Below, piece by piece: positions 6,315-42,263 of a stretch of DNA of 42,263 nt. The stretch spans positions 1 through 42,263 of the forward strand of contig JBIHZV010000001.1 of NCBI GenBank assembly GCA_044240275.1. Reading direction: 5' to 3'. The DNA comes from Ilumatobacteraceae bacterium (lineage in GTDB: Bacteria; Actinomycetota; Acidimicrobiia; Acidimicrobiales; Ilumatobacteraceae). The number at the start of each line of letters is the position of its first letter. The stretch's first letter is position 1. A model generated the notes under the pieces. That model was not told where the DNA came from. It did no database searches and saw only the letters and a program-made list of their open reading frames with translations. The position numbers and the translations under genes were made by a program.

Positions 6315-6451
6315 AAAGATCCTTTGTAGTCCACAATGTCAAACCGAGGGTATCTAGGGGTACCTGCAAAAGCAAGTATAAGTAATGCTTAGAGCACGCT
6401 TGTTTTTGGCCACGGGGGAGCAAGGTTGGGCACAACTAAACTCTGTGCATC

Positions 6452-9400
6452 GTGACGAATCCAACCGATTTGAACAACTTGGGCGAACGCGTCCCCCCAG
6501 TGCAGGCCCCACCCGTGGTCGTGGCGATGGTGGTGCACCAACCGTGTCCTTGGCTCGATGAAGTATTGACTTCACTTGCAACGCAGGACTACCCAAACCT
6601 GCAAACTTTGTTTTTTATCACCGCAAATATTGCGCCAGCAGACAATGCAAGTGACCGCATTCTCCACCACTTGCCGTCAGCGGTCATTCGTCAGGTTGAG
6701 GGCAACCCTGGGTATGGACCGCTAATGAACGAAGTTGGTCGTTTGGTTGCAGGAGAAAGCGGTTTCTTTTGCTTTATGCATGATGACGTTGCATTAGAGA
6801 GCAATGCAATCTCGACCATGATCGAAGAAGTGTTTAGATCGAATGCGGGTGTCGTTGGACCAAAGTTGGTGATGTGGGATGACATCACGGTGTTGCAAAG
6901 TGTCGGGCTAGGCGCCGATCGAATTGGCGATATTGATTCGGTTGTTGCACAAGGCGAGAAAGACCAAGAACAACACGACGCAGTGCGCGATGTGTTTTTG
7001 TTGCCGTCTGCATGCATGATGGTGCGTGCCGACTTGTTTCGTGAGATCGGTGGTTTTTCCCCCGACATCCCGCTCTTTGGTGAAGACCTAGATTTTTGTT
7101 GGCGCACTCACCTGAGTGGTGCGCGTGTTTTGGTGGTGCCAGCTGCACGTGCAAGACATCGCCAAGAGATGAGTGTCTCTCGATCTGTCTCGACGATGAG
7201 TGCGCTCGAGGCACGTCATCGAGTGCGCACAGTGGCTACGTTGTCGAGCCGAATTCAGTTGCCCATTGTTTTGCTGCAATTGATTGTGATGGCGATTGCC
7301 CGTGTTGTGATCGGTGTATTTAATGGAACATTCAGACAAGCACAAGTTTCGTTGCGCGCATCAATCGCTGTAATTTTTGATGTTCGGTACATTGTTCGGC
7401 GACGTGCGGAGGTGCGACCATATCGACGGGTTTCAGCCGCCGAAATTCATGGCCTACAGAGTCGTGGAAGTGCTCGTTTGTGGGCTTTCATTCGTAAACG
7501 ACAAACCCGAGTGCAAGAGATTTCTGGATTAAGTACCAAGAGTCTGAGCTCTCCCAAGTCAAGGTTTGTGGGGGTTACTGCCCTCATCGTGATCGCACTG
7601 ATTGTTATTGGTAGTCGGGGATTGATCGGCGGAGGGGTTGCATCGGTTGGTGAATTCTTGCCGCTGCGGAGCGCAACCGAATCGCCAACAGCCTCAATCT
7701 CGTCTGTCGTGAGTGGTTGGTGGCAGGCGGGTTTTGGTCAGGCGAGTGCAAACCCAACAGGAATTGTTTTGCTTGCGATTGCTGGTGTTGGCGTGCTGGG
7801 CAGACTCGGAGCATTGCAAATGCTTTCGGTTGTTGGTGCGTTAGTGGTTGGCTGCGTGGGTATGTGGCAAGTAGCGAGTGGTTTTTTTAGTTCGCGAGCG
7901 CGCATTGTTGGGTTTTTGATCTATGCAGCAGTGCCAGCACCCTACGTAGCAATCGCTCAGGGACGTTTTGGGGTGTTGACTTGTTATGCGGCATTGCCAT
8001 GGCTGTTGCGATTGTTCGTGCGCGTTGGTCAGCGTCCGATCGGTGTTCAAAAAACCCAAGTGTGGGCATTGGCTGTTTTGTTTGGTGCTGTGGTCGCTGC
8101 ATTCGCGCCGATTTTTGTGATTGTCGCACTGTTTGCGAGCGCAGCCTGGATGACAGCAGATCTTGTTTCGCACGTGCGATGGCAGGCAATTGTTGCAGTG
8201 CTGCAGATGATGTTTGTGCTTGTTGTGGGAATCATTGTTCTCAACTTCCCATGGTCTGGTGGATTCATCGCATCGGATTGGTGGCAGCAGTTGGTCGGTG
8301 TGCAAACAATGCGAAGTGGTCATGTTGGTCTTGCGACTCTTGCGCGTATGGACAGTGGCGTGATTGCAATCTCTATTTTGTCGCTTGGTTTGTATGTGCC
8401 TGTCATTATTGGTCTGTTGATCGTGCGCGGCGACAAATTGGTGTGGGCTGCACGTTCCGCGTCGCTCGTACTCTTTTCGCTTATCGCTCTGGCATTGTCG
8501 GACGCAGGTTATGTGGATGTGGCGATGCCCGAATACGGAATTTTGTTCGTCGTGATTGCATGTGGTCTGTCATTGGCCGCAGCCGCTATGGCGAGTTTTA
8601 TTTTTGATGATCAAGCCATCAATAGCTATCGATGGTGGAAGCCACTCGCGAGCGTCGCGCTTGCAAGCATCGTGGTAGGTGTTTTGCCCGCGCTCGTACT
8701 TTCTTCCAACGGACGGTGGGGTCAGCCAAAAGTTTCACTCGCTCAGTTGGTGGCACAGCTGCCAACCGACCCAGCATCGGGCGACTACAACGTGGTCTAT
8801 GTGGGACGAAGCGAGGTGCTGCCGTTACCGGCAATGCGTCTTAATGGCCAAACCGCATTTGCTGTTGCGGACGATGGAGAGTTGACATTGCGCGATCATT
8901 GGTTGGCTCCGACTAATGCGCTCACCGATTCGGTTGCTCAAGCTCTGGAAGCAGCGATCTCCCAGGAGACAGTTCGTTGTGGGAGATTGCTGGCAAGTCT
9001 TGGTGTTCGTTATCTTGTCGTGCCAATTATTGATGGTGCGGCGTCAACTGTTGATCAACCACTGGAAGCACCGATTGGTCTGCTCGAAGGTCTGTCGTTA
9101 CAACTGGATTTTCGGCGCGTGTACACAGCAAATGATTTGGTGATCTTTGAAAACATGGCTTACACGCCTTCGTTGACAAAACTGGACGAGGCATCTGGGG
9201 TGCTGAGTCAGCAGGCGGGCACCGATGCCTTGCTGTCATCTCAGTTACAAGTCGCGCAGGTGCTTCCGCGTGTGGGTGACATTGCAAGTCGTCCAACACC
9301 AGTTGACGTAGGCACCATTCATTTGGTCGCACCCTTTAACGATCGCTTGGTGTTGCATGTTGATAACTCTGACGTAATTCCGCGAGTTGCCTTTGGTGGC

Positions 9401-14627: not shown

Positions 14628-17090
14628 ATGAATCACGACGACATGAGTGAACGCTCAACCGTGTTGCAGCGTTGGTCAAATCAATTTGAATCGAACTCCG
14701 ATTACTGGAAACGCCTGTCTGCAATCATCGTGGTGGGCGGAGCCACAATATTTTTGTTGCTCACATTGCATCCAGATCTGATATTTCGTAACAACACTCC
14801 AACGGGCGGCGACATGGGCGCGCACGTGTGGGGTCCCGCATTTTTGCGCGATCACTTGCTTAATCAATTTCGCTTAGCGGGGTGGAGCATGGACTGGTAT
14901 GCGGGATTGCCTGTGTATCGCTACTACATGGTGGTTCCTGCACTGTTCATCGTTGCACTCAATCTTGTTTTGCCGTACGGAATCGCAATCAAAATTGCTG
15001 CCGTCATTGGGATTTTGACGTTGCCATATTGTGCGTGGCTCTTTGGAAGGTTCGCTCGGTTCGCATATCCAATTCCTGAGATGTTGGCGATTGCGGCGAC
15101 GATTTTTTTGTATGACGAAAGCTTCACGATCTATGGCGGAAACATCGCATCAACAATGGCTGGTGAGTTTTCGTTCTCAATTGCACTCTCACTCAGCATT
15201 CTGGGTTTTGCATTGGTGGCTCGCGGCCTTGAGACTGGCAAATATTTGGCGGCCGGGTCAATTGTTGTTGCGTTATCAGCCTTAAGTCACGGCATTGTAT
15301 TGCTGTTTGTGTTTGGTGGAGTTGCGCTGATGGTGCTGTTTTGGATTCCGCGAAAAATTGATGGTCACAGAGACAACACGTCGCTTGTCTTCGGCGTCAA
15401 GGTCGTCATTTTTGCGGTGCTTCTGTCGGCATTTTGGGTCATTCCTTTTGTTACAAGTCATGCCTATATGACCGACATGAAATACGAGCCACGTCCAAGT
15501 GGTTCGAAGGATTCATTTTGGAGCATGTACTTTCCGCTGAGCACGCTGTGGGACATCATTATTATGTCGCTTGCATTGGTCGGTGCAGCGACTCAATTCG
15601 TTCGCCGACAGAAGATCGGCATGTGGGCGAGTGCGTTCTGCGCGATACTTGCCGCAGGGGTGTATTTCGCTCGCGGTGGGTTGCCGGTTATTGGCTTGTT
15701 GTGGAACCCACGGATTTTGCCGTTCTTTTACTTGCTGCGCTACTTTCTTTTTGCAATCGGTATCTACGAAGTTATTGCGTTTGCAGCACGTGTTTTGTCG
15801 TTCGAGCGTGTGGCGCGACAATCTTTGTCAAGGAGCGAGGACAATGGCACGTTGCAGATCGCCCAAATTTCGTCGTCGCGCAGCAGAGTTTCTTTTAACT
15901 TGGGCGTGTTAGTCGCATTTGCTGTCGCCACATTTTTGGTGATCGGATTTCGCTTTCAAGAATTGCCATTCGGGAGTGTGAAGACCGATGCGGCTGGCAA
16001 GTCCGAATATGTTTGGGGTCCAATTCGTGGTGCCGCATCCAACGATGGCTTTGTTGATGGTTGGGCTCGCTGGAACTTCACTGGCTATGAGGGCAAGTCG
16101 GCGTATGGCGAATACCACGATGTGGTCATGACGATGAAGTCGCTAGGTGCAGACCCATCTCAGGGATGTGGCAGGGCCGTCTGGGAAAACAATGGCGAAC
16201 TCAATAAATATGGAACAACAATGGGGTTGATGCTTCTGCCGTTTTGGACGGACGGGTGTATCGGCTCGATGGAAGGCTTGTTTTTCGAGGCTGCAGGCAC
16301 GACCCCCTATCACTTCATTACAGCAGCAGCGATGTCAAAGCAGAGCAGTAATCCAGTGCGTGAGTTGCGGTACGACAACAACGACGCAGCCAAGGGCGTT
16401 GCATACATGCGTGCGCTTGGTGTCAAATACTTCATGGGTTTTACGCCAGAGGCAGTTACAGCAGCATCTGCGCAACCAGGACTCGTGAAGGTTGCGCAAT
16501 CTGGTCCGTGGGTGATTTTCCGTGTCAGCGAAAGCGCTGTAGTTGTGCCGCTCAGCGTGCAACCTGTTGTTGTTTCGATGGAAGGTGGAGATCCGCGCGA
16601 GCGTTGGCTTGAAATTGGAACCAGTTGGTTTCAGCATGCCGACGAATGGGCTGCTCTACCAGCTGATGCTGGTCCAGAAAAGTGGCAACATATTGACGCA
16701 ACAATTGATCTGACTCGTCGTGAGGGCGAGCCTGGTGCATCCGGTCGGCGAGTAGACATCGTGACTCCAGCTCAAGCGATAGAACCTGTTGTGTTACCTC
16801 CGGTTGTGGTGAGCAATGTTGTGCAGGGTCAAAGCACTGTGTCGTTTGCCGTTGACAAAATCGGGGTGCCAGTGTTGGTGCGGGTGAGTTATTTTCCAAA
16901 CTGGAAAGTCGACGGAGCAAACGGTCCGTTCCGCGTAGCACCGAACATGATGGTGGTGATTCCCACGAGCAACACCGTCAAGTTGCATTACGGCTCGACA
17001 TCTCTCGATTACATGGCGTATCTATTGACATTCATTGGTATTGGGGTGCTCGTGCGTAGGCGACGCAAAATGAGAAGAGAATTTCAGTAG
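14628..17090 (+). CDS. Large polytopic membrane protein with an extracytoplasmic C-terminal domain, putative GT-C-type glycosyltransferase
   Basis: 820 aa. About 11 or more hydrophobic helices occupy the first roughly 450 aa. An acidic/His-containing first loop follows TM1 (TPTGGDMGAHVWGP). A roughly 330-aa soluble domain and a final TM anchor (YLLTFIGIGVLV + RRRRK) complete it. The function is inferred only from architecture and context. Confidence 0.45.
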   Translation: MNHDDMSERSTVLQRWSNQFESNSDYWKRLSAIIVVGGATIFLLLTLHPDLIFRNNTPTGGDMGAHVWGPAFLRDHLLNQFRLAGWSMDWYAGLPVYRYYMVVPALFIVALNLVLPYGIAIKIAAVIGILTLPYCAWLFGRFARFAYPIPEMLAIAATIFLYDESFTIYGGNIASTMAGEFSFSIALSLSILGFALVARGLETGKYLAAGSIVVALSALSHGIVLLFVFGGVALMVLFWIPRKIDGHRDNTSLVFGVKVVIFAVLLSAFWVIPFVTSHAYMTDMKYEPRPSGSKDSFWSMYFPLSTLWDIIIMSLALVGAATQFVRRQKIGMWASAFCAILAAGVYFARGGLPVIGLLWNPRILPFFYLLRYFLFAIGIYEVIAFAARVLSFERVARQSLSRSEDNGTLQIAQISSSRSRVSFNLGVLVAFAVATFLVIGFRFQELPFGSVKTDAAGKSEYVWGPIRGAASNDGFVDGWARWNFTGYEGKSAYGEYHDVVMTMKSLGADPSQGCGRAVWENNGELNKYGTTMGLMLLPFWTDGCIGSMEGLFFEAAGTTPYHFITAAAMSKQSSNPVRELRYDNNDAAKGVAYMRALGVKYFMGFTPEAVTAASAQPGLVKVAQSGPWVIFRVSESAVVVPLSVQPVVVSMEGGDPRERWLEIGTSWFQHADEWAALPADAGPEKWQHIDATIDLTRREGEPGASGRRVDIVTPAQAIEPVVLPPVVVSNVVQGQSTVSFAVDKIGVPVLVRVSYFPNWKVDGANGPFRVAPNMMVVIPTSNTVKLHYGSTSLDYMAYLLTFIGIGVLVRRRRKMRREFQ

Positions 17091-36627: not shown

Positions 36628-38022
36628 ATGACTCTTGGTCGCGCAATTCCGCTTTGGCAAGACGGCCTGCAGCTTGATGGAAACACTCGACGCAGTGCAG
36701 TTGGACGTAGTGCTGTAGATGGCGTTGTTGAATCCGATGTCGTCATTGTCGGTGGCGGTTACACAGGGTTGTGGACAGCTTTTTATCTCAAACAACTTGC
36801 TCCGCAATTGTCGGTATCGATTGTTGAGTCGCAATTCGTTGGCTTTGGGGGGAGCGGTCGTAACGGCGGTTGGTGCAGTGCATTTTTGCCAATGTCGCCA
36901 AGCGAGATGTCGGCTGAGCATGGCGCACAAGCAATGCGTTTTTTGCAAGATCAAATGTTTGCAACTGTGGATGAAATTGCTCGTGTTGCTCAAGTGAACA
37001 ATATTGTCTGCGATTTCCACAAAGGCGGCACTATTACATCGGCCTCTGACCCTGCGCATGTGGCTCGACTACATCACTACATCGATGATTGGCATGCTGC
37101 CGGCTTTAGTGATGTAGATATGACTTGGGAAAGTGCAGAACAGATTTCAAAGCGTATTCGTGTTTCATCCACTCTGGGAGGCATGTACAGCCCACATTGT
37201 GCTGTGGTGAATCCATGGAAGTTGGTGACTGGGTTAGCGCGAACGATAGAGAATCTTGGCGTTGTGATTTATGAAGATTCGCGTGCACTCAAGATCGAGC
37301 CGCGAAGGGTCGTACTCGAACGAGGTGAAGTTCGGGCCAAATGGGTTGTCAATGCACTTGAGTCCTTCACCTCACAACTTCCATCAGGTACGCGGAAAAT
37401 CGTTCCGTTGTATTCATTGATGGTGGCAACCGAACCGCTTTCAGAATCTGTATGGCGCTCTCTCGGTTGGGCTCATCGCGAGACGTTTGCCGATGGTCGC
37501 AATATGGTCACGTATGCACAACGCACAGCAGACGATCGCATTGCTTTTGGGGGCCGAGGCGCGCCGTATCACTTTGGGTCAAGTATCGCCGATCGTTATG
37601 ACCGCAATAAAACAATTCATGGTCGGCTCGAGCAAACTGTGCGGGAAATATTCCCTCAGATTGCTGAGGCGCGGTTTACGCATCATTGGGGTGGCCCAGT
37701 TGGTGCGCCACGAGATTGGCATGCGTTTGCCAATGTCGATGCCAAAACAGGTCTATGTGCAGGTGGCGGATATGTTGGCGATGGAGTTGCTCTATCCAAC
37801 TTGGTTGGTCGAACACTTGCGCATCAGATTGCGGACACCGGTGATGCGCTTACCCAGTCAGCGCTTGTCAGTCATCAGTCAAAAAAGTGGGAAATTGAGC
37901 CACTGCGTTGGCTGGGTGTCAATTCGTTGTTGGCGTTGACCGAATATGCCGACAAGGCAGAGCGTCGAACTCACCGACCAATGAAGCGGTTACTCGCACT
38001 ACGCGATGGCTTATTGGGATGA
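36628..38022 (+). CDS. FAD-dependent oxidoreductase (DAO family, PuuB-like amine oxidase)
   Basis: The dinucleotide fold reads DVVIVGGGYTGLWTA and GFGGSGRNGG. It parallels E. coli PuuB by eye. The open frame starts at a TTG at 36619 and the first ATG is at 36628. Confidence 0.75.
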   Translation: MTLGRAIPLWQDGLQLDGNTRRSAVGRSAVDGVVESDVVIVGGGYTGLWTAFYLKQLAPQLSVSIVESQFVGFGGSGRNGGWCSAFLPMSPSEMSAEHGAQAMRFLQDQMFATVDEIARVAQVNNIVCDFHKGGTITSASDPAHVARLHHYIDDWHAAGFSDVDMTWESAEQISKRIRVSSTLGGMYSPHCAVVNPWKLVTGLARTIENLGVVIYEDSRALKIEPRRVVLERGEVRAKWVVNALESFTSQLPSGTRKIVPLYSLMVATEPLSESVWRSLGWAHRETFADGRNMVTYAQRTADDRIAFGGRGAPYHFGSSIADRYDRNKTIHGRLEQTVREIFPQIAEARFTHHWGGPVGAPRDWHAFANVDAKTGLCAGGGYVGDGVALSNLVGRTLAHQIADTGDALTQSALVSHQSKKWEIEPLRWLGVNSLLALTEYADKAERRTHRPMKRLLALRDGLLG

Positions 38023-38024
38023 GG

Positions 38025-38053
38025 TTGGCATTTGTGCACACTCACCGTAGGGT
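38025..38053 (+). promoter_or_regulatory. Candidate promoter for the his leader (TTGGCA - 17 nt - TAGGGT)
   Basis: The -35-like hexamer is at 38025-30. The TAnnnT-type -10 is at 38048-53. The GTG at 38061 lies 7 nt after the -10, which would give a leaderless transcript. This is pattern match only. Confidence 0.3.
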
Positions 38054-38060
38054 GACGTAC

Positions 38061-38126
38061 GTGAAGTCTTTTGCACACAACTCCCATCATCACGTTCATC
38101 ACGTGTCACGTCGGGCTCTTGTGTAG
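38061..38126 (+). CDS. Histidine-rich leader peptide of the his operon
   Basis: From the GTG at 38061 the frame gives 21 aa, (M)KSFAHNSHHHVHHVSRRALV. An alternative ATG at 38019 overlaps the upstream stop (ATGA) and gives 35 aa. Codons 38076-38102 read CAC AAC TCC CAT CAT CAC GTT CAT CAC, which is 6 His in 9 codons. The stop TAG is at 38124-26. Confidence 0.6.
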   Translation: MKSFAHNSHHHVHHVSRRALV

Positions 38127-38163
38127 CGCATCCAAACTCTCACAAGTTTTTCACAGCCCGTCG
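38109..38163 (+). promoter_or_regulatory. Candidate antiterminator helix of the his attenuator
   Basis: CGUCGGGCU (38109-17) pairs with AGCCCGUCG (38155-63) at 8 of 9 positions. This stacks on CUUGUG (38118-23) paired with CACAAG (38141-46). The helix sequesters 7 nt of the terminator 5' arm. Its own 5' arm ends 1 nt before the leader stop codon. Confidence 0.45.
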
Positions 38164-38189
38164 GATTATCCGGCGGGTTTTTTGTTTTT
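38155..38189 (+). terminator. Intrinsic terminator (attenuator) upstream of hisI
   Basis: Stem CCCGUCGGA / UCCGGCGGG (38157-65 / 38169-77) has 8 Watson-Crick pairs and 1 G.U pair, with loop UUA. It is followed by TTTTTTGTTTTT (38178-89), 42 nt before the hisI ATG. Confidence 0.8.
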
Positions 38190-38231
38190 CTAGCACAAGT
38201 TTCAAACATTAAATCGAGAAAGAAGGCAGTG

Positions 38232-38681
38232 ATGAACAAAGCAGTAATGAACAGCGAAAACACAATCCAAGATCAATCAAAAACAATGACAGATTTGGAT
38301 TTTGGCAAACTCGATGGACTGCTAGCAGTTGTTATTCAAGACGCGGTGACGCAGCGGGTACTCATGGTTGGGTTTATGAATGCTGAGTCTTATGCGCGAA
38401 CACTCGAAACCGGATTTGTTGTCTTTTTTAGCCGCTCGCGCAACAAGCTGTGGATGAAGGGTGAAACGTCTGGACACACGCTGCAGGTTGTGTCGATGTC
38501 AACCGACTGTGATCGTGATGCTTTACTCATCACGGTAAAAGCAAATGGTCCTGGTGTTTGCCATGAAGGATTTGAAAGCTGCTTTTCGCGCACACGTGTC
38601 AACAACAACTGGATAGTTACCGACCCACAAACTTTTTCACCAACCGATGTATACAGCGACACGAAAGAGGTAGTCAAATGA
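38232..38681 (+). CDS. hisI: Phosphoribosyl-AMP cyclohydrolase (monofunctional HisI)
   Basis: ATG at 38232 with AAGG 5 nt upstream; the frame opens at a GTG at 38229. Motifs: [51 protein letters not shown]. No PRA-PH (HisE) domain. Confidence 0.9.
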
Positions 38682-39559
38682 GCAATGAATCAATTTTGAA
38701 ACTCGGAATACCAAAAGGAAGTTTGGAAAATGCAACGATCGATTTGTTTCGGCGTGCAGGTTTTCAGATCACCGTCAACAGTCGGTCGTACTTTCCAGCC
38801 ATAGATGATCCGAATATTGAGTGCATGTTGATTCGCGCTCAAGAAATGGCGCGTTATGTAGAAGACGGTGTACTGGATGCCGGGCTGACAGGGCTCGACT
38901 GGATTGCTGAAACCGGTGCGAACGTGCACCCGATTACCGACTTGGTGTATGCAAAGCAAAGCTTTGGTCGCGTTCGTTGGGTGCTCGCAGTACCTGAACA
39001 GTCGGAAGTGCGCAGTGTCAAAGACCTTGAGGGCAAGATCATTGCTACTGAACTTGTTGAAACAACAAAGCGATATCTGGCAGCAAATGGAGTTACTGCA
39101 AAAGTCGAATTCAGTTGGGGGGCGACCGAGGTGAAGCCACCAATTTTGGCAGACGCCATTGTGGAAGTAACAGAGACTGGATCATCGCTCCGTGCCAATA
39201 ATTTGCGCATTGTTGAAACGGTGCTCGAGTCGAACACGCAGTTCATAGCCAATACGACATCATGGCAAGACCCAGCCAAGCGTCAGCAGATGCAAGACAT
39301 TCGGATGCTGCTCGAAGGAGCAATTAACGCAATGGGCAAGGTTGGGTTGATGATGAATGTGGAGCGCTCTAGTTTGCAACAAGTACTAGACGTGTTGCCG
39401 GCGTTGAAGACACCAACAATTTCAACGTTGGCTGATGAAAATTGGTTGGCACTAAACACGATCTTGGATGAAAGTACTGTGCGCACAATCATTCCTCGGC
39501 TCAAGCAGGCGGGCGCGTCAGGCATTGTCGAGTATCCACTCAACAAGATTGTTAACTGA
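38678..39559 (+). CDS. hisG: ATP phosphoribosyltransferase, long form with C-terminal regulatory domain
   Basis: 293 aa with an ATGA overlap with hisI. Motifs: [31 protein letters not shown]. It has a C-terminal roughly 75-aa ACT-like extension. Confidence 0.9.
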
Positions 39560-40797
39560 TGCTGAGAATTCTTGATCAAGCAGGAGCAAATGCGTTTCTC
39601 AATCGCGCTACTCAGCGACTGGATAACGCACTTGAGATTGTCAAACCGATCGTTCAGGATGTACGCGATCGTGGAGACATAGCGGTTCGTGAATATGCGG
39701 GAAGACTTGATGGCTTCACGGGGGAGAGTTTTGTCATCGATTCCTGTGGCGAACTTGACCCCGCATTGTTGGAGGCGGTGACAATCGCAGCAAAAAATAT
39801 TCGTGACTTCGCACAGCAGCAACTTGTCAAGCCGTGGCAAACAACTACGAGCGACGGTCGAACACTTGGTCAAATTGTTCGTCCACTTGATTCGGTCGGT
39901 GTGTATGTGCCCGCTGGAAGGTATCCACTGCTTTCGACCATGTTGATGGCTGTCATTCCTGCACAAGTTGCTGGAGTCGGCACGATTACCGTCGTGTGCC
40001 CACAACCGAATACGCAGATTTTGGCGCTGGCAAAATGGCTTGGTCTCAAGTCCATCATTCAATTAGGTGGGGCACAAGCAATCGCTTCTCTTGCTTATGG
40101 CACTCAAAGCATCGCCAAAGTGCAAAGGATTGTTGGGCCTGGTAACTCGTATGTTGCCGCAGCAAAAAAGTTGGTTGCAGGCGATGTCGGAATCGATTTT
40201 GTTGCTGGACCTAGCGAGATCGTGCTTGTTGCAAACGCAGGAGATCCAACTTGGATCGCAGCCGACATGCTCGCACAGTGTGAGCATGACGTGGAAGCTC
40301 GGGCAATCCTGCTCACAACCTCAACAACTCTTGCCACAGAAGTTCAGGCACAAGTTGCACTGCAGTTGCTGACGTTGACCACGGCTGATGTTGCGTCATT
40401 GGCTGTTGCCAATAACAGCGCAATAATCGTGTGTCAAAGTGTTGAAGAGATCATTGAACTGGTTAACGAGATTGCTCCAGAGCACTTGGCGATACCAGAC
40501 GAATCTTTGTCAGTTGATTCGTTTGTTGACAAGATTGTTAATGCTGGGTCAATTTTTGTCGGAAGATTTAGTACCGAAGCTGCTGGCGATTATGCGAGTG
40601 GGCCAAACCATGTGCTGCCAACTTCGGGGGTCGCGGCCTTACGCGGTGGCTTATCGGTGAATGATTTTGTCAAAGTTATTACAACGCAATCGTTGAGCGA
40701 AGATGCCTTGCGGCAATTGACGCCAGCTGTGACCCAATTGGCCCGAGCCGAGGGCTTGGAAGCCCATGCAAGAAGTGTTGAAGTGAGGCAGGGATGA
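39559..40797 (+). CDS. hisD: Histidinol dehydrogenase
   Basis: 412 aa with a TGATG overlap with hisG. Motifs: GVYVPAG.YPL.ST.LM, IVGPGNSYVAAAK, AGPSE, QCEHD, EHL, GDYASGPNHVLPT. Confidence 0.95.
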   Translation: MLRILDQAGANAFLNRATQRLDNALEIVKPIVQDVRDRGDIAVREYAGRLDGFTGESFVIDSCGELDPALLEAVTIAAKNIRDFAQQQLVKPWQTTTSDGRTLGQIVRPLDSVGVYVPAGRYPLLSTMLMAVIPAQVAGVGTITVVCPQPNTQILALAKWLGLKSIIQLGGAQAIASLAYGTQSIAKVQRIVGPGNSYVAAAKKLVAGDVGIDFVAGPSEIVLVANAGDPTWIAADMLAQCEHDVEARAILLTTSTTLATEVQAQVALQLLTLTTADVASLAVANNSAIIVCQSVEEIIELVNEIAPEHLAIPDESLSVDSFVDKIVNAGSIFVGRFSTEAAGDYASGPNHVLPTSGVAALRGGLSVNDFVKVITTQSLSEDALRQLTPAVTQLARAEGLEAHARSVEVRQG

Positions 40798-41843
40798 TTA
40801 CTCCTAAACAAAGTGTGCGCAACATGCGCCCTTATTCGCCACCCACGCAGGGTCGGGGCGGCAAGATGCGTCTCGACTTCAACGAAAATACGGTGGGTTG
40901 CTCGCCGCGCGTGTTGGCTGCTGTGACTCAGGCTTTAACCGATGAAAACGTAGCGATGTACCCCGAATATTCAGAGGCGAGAACAGAGATCGCCAACTTT
41001 TTAGGTGTAGCGGACGACCAATTGACGTTCACCAACGGAACCGACGAGGCGATTCAACTTCTCATCAACACTTTCTTTGAACTTGGCGATGAGCTCGTGA
41101 TCCTCAGTCCTTCGTATGCGATGTATCGCTTTTATGCCGAAGTTGCTGGCGTTCGAGTGACCGAAGTTGCGTATCAGATCGAGGACAATCTGGTGTTTCC
41201 ACTTCAGTCATTGACTGAAAAGATTACGGACACAACTCGTGGCGTCTTTATTGCAAACCCAAATAACCCGACTGGTAGAGCTATTTCAGTTAATGACGTC
41301 ATCGCAATTCTTGAGCACTCACCGCAAACGATTGTCCTTATCGATGAGGCGTATGTTGAGTTTTCCCAGATTTCGGTATTGCCATTACTCAATCGTTATC
41401 CAAACTTGTTTATCAGCCGTACCTTTTCAAAGGCGTTTGGTATGGCTGGCTTGCGATGTGGATGTCTTGTTTCGTCGGCAGACAACATTGCTTGGGCTCG
41501 CCGAGCGCAGTCGCCATACAGCGTTAATGCTCTGGCAGTAGCGGCGGCTCGTGCCGCTGTTGGTGATATTGAATTTGTTGCAAACTATGTGCGCGAAGTT
41601 GTTAACTCTCGGCAGATGGTGCAAGATGCACTCACTCGTTTTGGTTTGCGATGGTTTCCAAGCGACGGCAACTTTTTGCTCTTTGATGCTGGATCGCGTA
41701 AGCAAAAAATACTTGATCAGATGAAGTCTGCAGGCATCTTGATTCGTGATCGAAGTCACGAAATAGACGGATGTGTTCGCGTCACGATCGGAACAATTGA
41801 CCAAATGAAACTATTTATTACAGAAATGGAAAAAGCAATATGA
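40794..41843 (+). CDS. hisC: Histidinol-phosphate aminotransferase
   Basis: 349 aa with an ATGA overlap with hisD. Motifs: [32 protein letters not shown]. The PLP-lysine motif is [15 protein letters not shown]. Confidence 0.9.
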
Positions 41844-42263
41844 AAAAGCCACCGTCGAATAAAACACTACGAAAAGCAACAGTCAAGCGTGTAAGTAAAG
41901 AAACGAGTATCTCTGCAACTTTGCTGATTGAGGGCACAGGCAAGTACGAGATTTCTACGGGTATCAGGTTTCTGGACCACATGCTTGAGCTTGTTGCCAA
42001 ACATGGAGGTTTTGACCTGACACTGAAGGCCACAGGAGATTTGGATATCGATCAGCATCACACCGTTGAAGACGTGGGCATTGTGTTGGGCGAGGTGTTC
42101 AAGAAAGCGTTAGGCAAAAAAATTGGAATTAATCGTGCGGGCTATTTCGTCTTGCCGATGGATGAAACTCTTGCGGTGGTTGCAGTTGACCTGAGTGGTC
42201 GTCCCGCCCTCGTGTATTCGGACATGATTAAGGCTCGACTGGTTGGCGATCTGCAAACTGAGT
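41840..42263 (+). CDS. hisB: Imidazoleglycerol-phosphate dehydratase (5' part, truncated by the window end)
   Basis: ATGA overlap with hisC. My own translation gives [85 protein letters not shown]..., which carries the IGPD motifs FLDHML and DxHHTVED. The frame stays open to the end of the window. Confidence 0.85.

Follow-up and report, generated by a model that had tools for sequence, protein, structure and literature searches.

Is the spacer in front of hisI, the first gene of a histidine biosynthesis operon, a regulatory element, and if so of which kind? We asked this for a stretch of 42,263 nucleotides (nt) from an Ilumatobacteraceae bacterium (GenBank assembly GCA_044240275.1, contig JBIHZV010000001.1, positions 1–42,263 of the forward strand), which is referred to in its full length as the window. 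The Ilumatobacteraceae belong to the Acidimicrobiia (Actinomycetota). Attenuation by a His leader peptide is textbook knowledge for Gammaproteobacteria, and a first-pass annotation of the window had proposed an attenuator with the logic of enterobacterial hisL between the stop codon of a flavin adenine dinucleotide (FAD)-dependent oxidoreductase gene and the start of hisI. The analysis described here makes it very probable that the spacer encodes a ribosome-mediated transcription attenuator, predicted to sense charged tRNA-His and to control the hisI-hisG-hisD-hisC-hisB operon.

A His-rich mini-ORF, a terminator and an alternative helix precede hisI

Re-reading of the spacer confirmed the coordinates that the first-pass annotation had assigned to a leader open reading frame (ORF), a hairpin, an alternative pairing and two promoter-like boxes. 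The features of the element are as follows.

38020–38022, plus strand: TGA stop codon of the FAD-dependent oxidoreductase gene (direct reading; Pfam DAO).
38025–38030, plus strand: −35-like hexamer TTGGCA (direct reading), invariant in six Ilumatobacteraceae relatives, with variable flanks.
38048–38053, plus strand: −10-like hexamer TAGGGT, with 17 nt between it and the −35 box and 7 nt between it and GTG 38061; invariant in the relatives.
38061–38126, plus strand: leader ORF, peptide MKSFAHNSHHHVHHVSRRALV; GTG, 20 more codons and TAG at 38124–38126; predicted to be leaderless.
38072–38085, plus strand: segment 1, strand of the protector helix, pairing with segment 2 in untranslated RNA (in silico only).
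38076–38102, plus strand: putative His-codon sensor, H-N-S-H-H-H-V-H-H, with 6 His in 9 codons and at most three in succession.
38109–38123, plus strand: segment 2, 5′ strand of the antiterminator; runs over the final five sense codons (R-R-A-L-V) to the stop; invariant in the relatives.
38141–38163, plus strand: segment 3, 3′ strand of the antiterminator; CACAAG at 38141–38146, an 8-nt bulge, and AGCCCGUCG at 38155–38163.
38155–38189, plus strand: intrinsic terminator; 11-bp GC-rich stem, 3-nt loop and a U6GU5 tract at 38178–38189.

Translated from GTG 38061, the leader peptide contains 6 His in 21 amino acids (aa). The core of the terminator hairpin is CCCGUCGGA-UUA-UCCGGCGGG at 38157–38177, and a terminator scan lengthened its stem to 11 pairs (38155–38179). 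It lies 30 nt past the leader stop, and 42 nt separate its end from the hisI ATG at 38232. The sequence AGCCCGUCG at 38155–38163 serves twice, as the 5′ arm of the terminator and as part of the antiterminator. In the latter, 38109–38117 pair with 38155–38163 at 8 of 9 positions, with a single U·U, to form an outer helix on which an inner helix of six out of six pairs is stacked (38118–38123 with 38141–38146). The 5′ half of the antiterminator had been placed 1 nt short of the leader stop; it abuts the stop codon with no gap. The window thus holds a His-rich mini-ORF, a terminator and, in silico, an antiterminator that excludes it, which support the attenuator interpretation. A protector helix between segments 1 and 2 (1:2) is predicted as well.

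Two of these parts are rare by chance. In its six frames, the window contains a single run of 9 stop-free codons with 6 His or more, where 0.025 would be expected from a dinucleotide-preserving shuffle; on its two strands, it contains a single strong hairpin with a U-tract, where 0.03 would be expected. The spacer had also been described as the longest in the window; several gaps of 300–400 nt separate its larger ORFs, and small genes may lie inside them, a point that has no bearing on the attenuator. A function on the opposite strand was rejected, as the minus strand has only short, unsupported ORFs and no U-tract.

Ribosome position switches the predicted fold

In the mechanism that we propose, transcription would start about 7 nt past TAGGGT, at or beside GTG 38061, and the 21-codon leader ORF would be translated from a leaderless 5′ end. 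With plentiful His-tRNA, the ribosome would reach UAG 38124–38126 and cover segment 2 (38109–38123). Segment 3 would then be free, the terminator (38155–38179 plus the U-tract) would form and RNA polymerase would halt before hisI. With scarce His-tRNA, the ribosome would stall at codon 6 or at the HHH triplet (codons 9–11), masking segment 1 and leaving segment 2 exposed. Segment 2 would pair with 38141–38146 and 38155–38163, thereby occupying the 5′ arm of the terminator and allowing read-through. Without any translation, segments 1 and 2 would pair with each other and the terminator would form. The response to histidine, the transcription start and leaderless initiation are inferred, whereas the sequence elements, their statistical uniqueness and conservation, their energetics and their place in a large family are shown by the analysis. 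The mechanism is the known hisL/trpL logic and no new regulatory principle; what is novel is the family, together with the hosts that carry it and its apparent transfer.

Folding is consistent with this scheme. The 135-nt leader (38061–38195) folds more stably than its shuffles (z = −4.4), and its minimum-free-energy structure comprises the 1:2 helix (nt 12–25 with nt 53–70, counted from 38061) and the terminator. A comparison of the two conformers, suggested in the first-pass annotation, gave −18.4 kcal/mol for the terminator and −17.8 kcal/mol for the named pairs of the antiterminator. We modeled masking by the ribosome by blocking the nt that it would cover and folding the nascent RNA as far as the loop of the terminator. 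When the A site was on codons 9–10 of the HHH triplet (nt 1–39 or 1–42 masked), the antiterminator was the minimum-energy fold at −21.3 kcal/mol, and it was still so at −20.0 kcal/mol with the A site on codon 11. When the ribosome was on the stop codon, segment 2 was covered, the antiterminator was lost and the terminator formed.

The element is conserved in close relatives

The first-pass annotation had guessed at an actinobacterial genome, and the closest records agree: in a scan of genome collections, the two nearest HisI relatives were from metagenome-assembled genomes (MAGs) of Ilumatobacteraceae (L001, 93% identity; L002, 88%). A HisI protein search returned more than 100 clusters at 81–96% identity, which points to an abundant environmental lineage; the HisI cluster is present in many ENA samples. 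A metagenome scan with HisI gave, among the matches listed, acidobacterial-type loci only and no further Ilumatobacteraceae.

We took the most divergent relatives (HisI 81–86% identical) and aligned the regions upstream of hisI. From start codon to U-tract the element is essentially invariant down to 81% HisI identity. The leader ORFs of the relatives have three non-synonymous changes, all outside the His codons, every one of which is invariant. Variation in the terminator is limited to the loop and one base before the stem. The His run, the stop and the pairing, whose conservation had been named as a check, are therefore all kept in Ilumatobacteraceae.

A covariance model matches the leader at full length

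We built a covariance model (R1) from 78 leaders, none of which came from the window's lineage, and searched the whole window with filters off. R1 gave a single significant match, at 38061–38187 on the plus strand (36.2 bits, E = 1.3e-7), that covered the full length of the model (positions 1–144) and aligned the model AUG (position 1) to GTG 38061. The runner-up in the window scored 10.6 bits (16937–16988, minus strand) and lies antisense inside a large plus-strand ORF. A stretch with 5 His in 9 codons at about 6535–6541 on the minus strand, with a 4.5-bit R1 match at 6434–6541, is likewise antisense in a large ORF. Both places (6434–6541 and 16937–16988) were considered as a second element and rejected; the matches are below significance and antisense, and probably due to chance.

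In Rfam 15, no family matched the window at its gathering threshold, and neither His_leader (RF00514) nor T-box (RF00230) matched 37900–38350 even at E values up to 10. The hisL logic ascribed to the element by the first-pass annotation was thus borne out, whereas membership in the enterobacterial His_leader family was not, as there was no covariance match. A T-box was rejected on the same ground, and a riboswitch was also considered and rejected. At permissive thresholds, unrelated small RNAs (sroD, anti-hemB and others) appeared below threshold, driven by the terminator, and we took these matches as chance. Rfam searches of 17 acidobacterial loci gave no His_leader and only an unrelated cobalamin riboswitch. 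It was found in L131 (1983–2171, minus strand; 101.7 bits), some 650 nt before the his leader, on the opposite strand.

Similar leaders precede hisI mainly in Acidobacteriota

After the Ilumatobacteraceae, the next-closest HisI proteins (50–67% identity) were, among the matches listed, from Acidobacteriota (Terriglobia, Bryobacterales, Acidobacteriaceae). We examined 156 related loci (L003–L160). Most have a stop-free stretch with 5–9 His in 9 codons about 60–250 nt upstream of hisI, and most of those that fall under the threshold of 5 in 9 either reach 4 His or have an upstream region that is cut short. A His-rich mini-ORF is missing from only four hisI-hisG loci (L014, L019, L085, L091) for which 400 nt before hisI are available. 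They may be natural controls, operons that have no leader, or the leader may have been replaced by another regulator.

When loci with at least 5 His in 9 codons were counted as leader-bearing, 146 of 147 (140 of them outside the window's lineage) had a hairpin and a U-run 14–38 nt past the leader stop. The layout of promoter, His mini-ORF, antiterminator, terminator and hisI-hisG-hisD-hisC is shared by at least about 150 loci, mostly from Acidobacteriota, with a few bins labeled Armatimonadota or Verrucomicrobia (Verrucomicrobiota). Leader peptides of the family are 17–28 residues long (for example MQSHRHHGHHHHHGTSMPADCHGLK, MNAHLHHRHHTLQQRALS and MTLVHVARHHHHTHAIVRRALS), with 3–9 residues before the His run; MNAHLHHRHHTLQQRALS and MTLVHVARHHHHTHAIVRRALS end in the same RRAL/RAL motif as the window's leader.

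When nascent RNA was folded, at least 5 nt of the terminator 5′ arm were paired with the ORF end in 144 of the 146 loci (median z of −2.5 against shuffled ORF ends). The architecture is that of the window: the last codons and the terminator arm form the outer helix, and the inner helix closes around the stop codon. The sequence of the inner helix differs between subfamilies. It is CUUGUG/CACAAG in the window, UGGCC/GGCCA in Acidobacteriaceae, of the CUCUCU/AGAGAG type in L007 and L013, GUCC/GGAC in L087 and GUGCG/CGCAC in Granulicella. Among 81 non-redundant loci, cognate strand pairs were more stable than non-cognate pairs for both helices (−19.2 versus −17.0 and −8.8 versus −7.5 kcal/mol), and the observed means were reached in none of 5000 permutations. 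In an 11-sequence alignment, 79% of the cells of the antiterminator and 94% of those of the terminator were paired, as compared to 34–52% when the strands were slid, showing that the pairing is register-specific.

The leader ORF probably begins at the 5′ end of the transcript

Two starts are available in frame, GTG 38061 and ATG 38019. Among the relatives, both promoter-like hexamers are invariant, whereas the 7-nt gap from TAGGGT to the start codon is hypervariable. A promoter with transcription beginning right at the start codon would look like this; a coding extension from ATG 38019 would not. The same geometry is seen in the wider family. In 59 of 79 members (78 other loci and the window), a TANNNT hexamer ends 7–9 nt before the leader start, a Shine-Dalgarno-like motif precedes the leader ORF in only four of the 79, and TTGACA-like boxes occur upstream at the matching relative position in related loci. 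The identical TAGGGT is found in L063. The start codon at 38061 is GTG in the window and ATG in the relative L163. Together with the R1 alignment, these observations support the suggestion in the first-pass annotation that the leader ORF itself is leaderless, and we consider this probable. A −10 box about 8 nt before the leader ATG, with no Shine-Dalgarno sequence, predicts leaderless translation of the leader peptide in Acidobacteriota too; no report of leaderless mRNAs from that phylum was found in the literature searched.

An attenuator of the same kind could also be served by a 35-aa leader with 8 His, made from ATG 38019 by coupled translation of transcripts that read through from the operon upstream. 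This codon shares a frame with the leader, with no intervening stop, in the window and in five relatives. It overlaps the stop codon of the FAD-dependent oxidoreductase gene (ATGA 38019–38022), as it does in four of the five relatives, the fifth (L162) having GTGA. However, 38019–38060 look like a promoter, with two invariant hexamers separated by variable bases and followed by the hypervariable 7 nt. In Acidobacteriota the upstream gene is a different one, yet the leader begins 7–9 nt past a −10-like box. Moreover, R1 puts the family AUG on 38061, and family leaders have only 3–9 residues before the His run. We regard the longer leader as unlikely; the two routes could coexist.

Control at translation, coincidence and a micropeptide explain less of the data

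Translation of the leader could instead gate the ribosome-binding site of hisI or feed reinitiation, as in the upstream ORFs (uORFs) for poly-Cys peptides of mycobacteria. Leaderless sensory uORFs that act on translation do exist in Actinobacteria (bioRxiv 10.1101/834739), and ribosomes have been proposed to reinitiate after leader genes (PMC4833913). Nevertheless, leader and hisI are separated by a canonical terminator whose U-rich tract is 12 nt long. From the leader stop to the hisI ATG there are 105 nt, far more than the distance at which reinitiation occurs (peak at 10–11 nt; PMC4833913). In a fold of 38061–38260, the leader did not pair with the Shine-Dalgarno region of hisI, whose mean unpaired probability was 0.49; since this region is not sequestered, the design appears to be transcriptional. 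Control at translation is therefore quite improbable.

A plainer possibility is that the hairpin merely terminates the upstream FAD-oxidoreductase operon and that the His-rich ORF is a coincidence. The hairpin is 135 nt past the upstream stop and the only strong terminator nearby, and it would also stop upstream read-through. This reading has to accept a His run expected only 0.025 times per window, and a His run and terminator that are conserved before hisI in about 150 loci with differing upstream genes. Furthermore, the R1 match takes in both ORF and terminator. We consider coincidence highly improbable.

It is scarcely credible that the mini-ORF serves to make a His-rich micropeptide with a function of its own, such as metal binding, instead of acting as a sensor: the His-rich composition is conserved in family leader peptides, but residues outside the His codons vary freely between subfamilies, the conserved C-terminal codons match the RNA pairing with the terminator arm, and the ORF always lies directly before his biosynthesis genes with a terminator after it.

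Evidence that weighs against attenuation

Six observations count against the attenuator or narrow it. The nascent-RNA control is permissive, as shuffled ORF ends still pair with about 6 nt of the terminator arm. RNAalifold on a MAFFT alignment of 78 sequences recovered only the base of the terminator (7 pairs); in this alignment the inner helices of different subfamilies fall in different columns. Covariation in the core helices of the 11-sequence alignment was no higher than in the shuffles, the sequence of the GCCCGCCG core being conserved. Ilumatobacteraceae sequences offer no covariation, as the element does not vary within that lineage. The proposed plus-strand promoter was missing from the output of a stricter sigma-70 scan. 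Finally, a ribosome with its A site at codon 13 or 14, the last two for His, hid part of segment 2 and weakened the antiterminator, so that only the earlier His codons could signal.

The operon and its attenuator probably moved together

The his genes downstream of the terminator are as follows.

38232–38681, plus strand: hisI, phosphoribosyl-AMP cyclohydrolase, the first gene under the predicted control (Pfam PRA-CH, E = 2e-32).
38678–39559, plus strand: hisG, long-form ATP phosphoribosyltransferase (Pfam HisG and HisG_C).
39559–40797, plus strand: hisD, histidinol dehydrogenase (Pfam Histidinol_dh, E = 5e-140).
40794–41843, plus strand: hisC, histidinol-phosphate aminotransferase (Pfam Aminotran_1_2; position matched in 104 related loci).
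41843–42263, plus strand: hisB, imidazoleglycerol-phosphate dehydratase (Pfam IGPD, E = 1e-42), with a provisional start and running off the window.

The order leader-hisI-hisG-hisD-hisC is common to 104 loci; others are cut by contig ends. HisG of the window is 78–82% identical to HisG of Bryobacterales/Terriglobia, a very high value between members of different phyla, and this indicates that operon and attenuator probably moved together. As compared to L003–L013, HisD is 55–60% and HisC 51–56% identical. The his region has a G+C content of 0.485, versus 0.50–0.54 in the rest of the window. The upstream FAD-oxidoreductase gene was found only in Ilumatobacteraceae loci; as it is specific to that lineage, the attenuator travels with hisI and the operon and not with the upstream gene.

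These comparisons are most simply read as horizontal transfer of a cassette of attenuator and operon between Acidobacteriota and Ilumatobacteraceae, in one direction or the other. The element is not an actinobacterial invention. It is a member of a family found chiefly in Acidobacteriota, and it probably came in along with the operon. Whether the broader picture holds is, in our judgment, an even call: a large, possibly undescribed family of leaderless His attenuators that heads hisIGDC(B) across Acidobacteriota and a few Armatimonadota and Verrucomicrobiota bins, and that crossed into freshwater Acidimicrobiia as an intact cassette.

Comparison with known systems

The enterobacterial hisL attenuator (RF00514) is the closest in logic. 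In the model of Johnston et al (1980), as summarized in PMC9413887, it shares with the window's element a short His-rich leader ORF, alternative 1:2, 2:3 and 3:4 helices (predicted in the window's case), a terminator before the first structural gene and a choice between terminator and antiterminator that depends on ribosome position. It differs in that hisL has seven His codons in a row, whereas the window has 6 in 9 codons with at most three in a row, and in that hisL precedes hisG and not hisI. In addition, the window's leader is without a Shine-Dalgarno sequence and predicted to be leaderless, its host is an actinobacterium, and it does not match RF00514.

His attenuators have been predicted in Firmicutes (Bacillus cereus group, Peptostreptococcaceae, Erysipelotrichales; PMC9413887), as have leaders of hisZ and of hisS paralogues in bacilli (PMC2965389). 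These too are His mini-ORFs with terminator and antiterminator helices outside Proteobacteria, and transfer of an operon with its attenuator has been proposed there as well (PMC9413887). Compared by description, they are from other phyla, have hisZ, hisS or hisG as first genes, and carry 3–5 His codons.

Members of the same family are the hisI leaders of Acidobacteriota, such as those of Granulicella rosea DSM 18704 (L051) and Terracidiphilus gabretensis S55 (L068). They have the GCCCGNCG terminator and the hisI-G-D-C order, a −10 box 7–9 nt before the start, a His leader of 17–28 codons, pairing between the ORF end and the terminator arm, and an inner helix that encloses the stop. The window differs from them in phylum, in its GTG in place of ATG, in having fewer His codons and in an inner helix (CUUGUG/CACAAG) of its own. 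A T in its terminator arm gives a G·U in the terminator and the U·U mismatch in the antiterminator.

Among Actinobacteria, the leaderless poly-Cys short ORFs of mycobacteria (bioRxiv 10.1101/834739) resemble the predicted leader as amino-acid-sensing uORFs that form the first cistron of a biosynthetic operon. However, they sense Cys and sequester a downstream Shine-Dalgarno sequence, acting on translation, whereas the window's element has His codons and a terminator. The T-box of Corynebacterium glutamicum hisDCB (PMC3896937; PMC9413887) likewise responds at the RNA level to tRNA-His charging in front of an actinobacterial his operon. It binds tRNA directly, whereas the window's element is predicted to sense charging through a translating ribosome and has no T-box match.

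In a 2005 survey, the his operons of Actinobacteria were found to have no RNA element in front of them (PMC1262725), and in a 2010 survey the predicted attenuators of Acidobacteria were almost without assigned function (PMC2965389). The hisI leader family is absent from Rfam, and full-text searches of the literature gave no description of it for Acidobacteria or Acidimicrobiia; earlier prediction of some members is possible. If our reading is right, the classical leader-peptide mechanism is at least encoded in both Actinobacteria and Acidobacteria, and the family offers some 150 or more seed sequences for Rfam-style annotation. The locus also documents an apparent transfer of an operon across phyla together with its cis-regulator. 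Cultured hosts (Granulicella, Terracidiphilus) are on hand for what would be a leaderless, terminator-based attenuator. A sensing ORF at the very 5′ end of the transcript would, if true, be a variant in how the first ribosome is coupled to RNA polymerase, as the ribosome would load without a Shine-Dalgarno sequence.

A tandem repeat at the hisI start

The hisI start at ATG 38232 could be fixed because relatives have TAA just before it. The 5′ end of the gene (38226–38255) carries a tandem unit of 15 nt, into which fall an in-frame ATG and the nt immediately preceding it; the window has GCAGTGATGAACAAA followed by GCAGTAATGAACAGC. Tandem Repeats Finder reported nothing at the hisI start of the window and a clear 15-nt array in a relative. 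L001 has 2.9 copies of GAAGTAATGAATAAA at 267–309, and a 15-nt unit is also found in L161 at about 120–150. HisI homologues fall into length classes of 143, 148, 153, 158, 163 and 168 aa, that is, in steps of one 15-nt unit, which suggests that the copy number of this start-codon cassette varies in the population.

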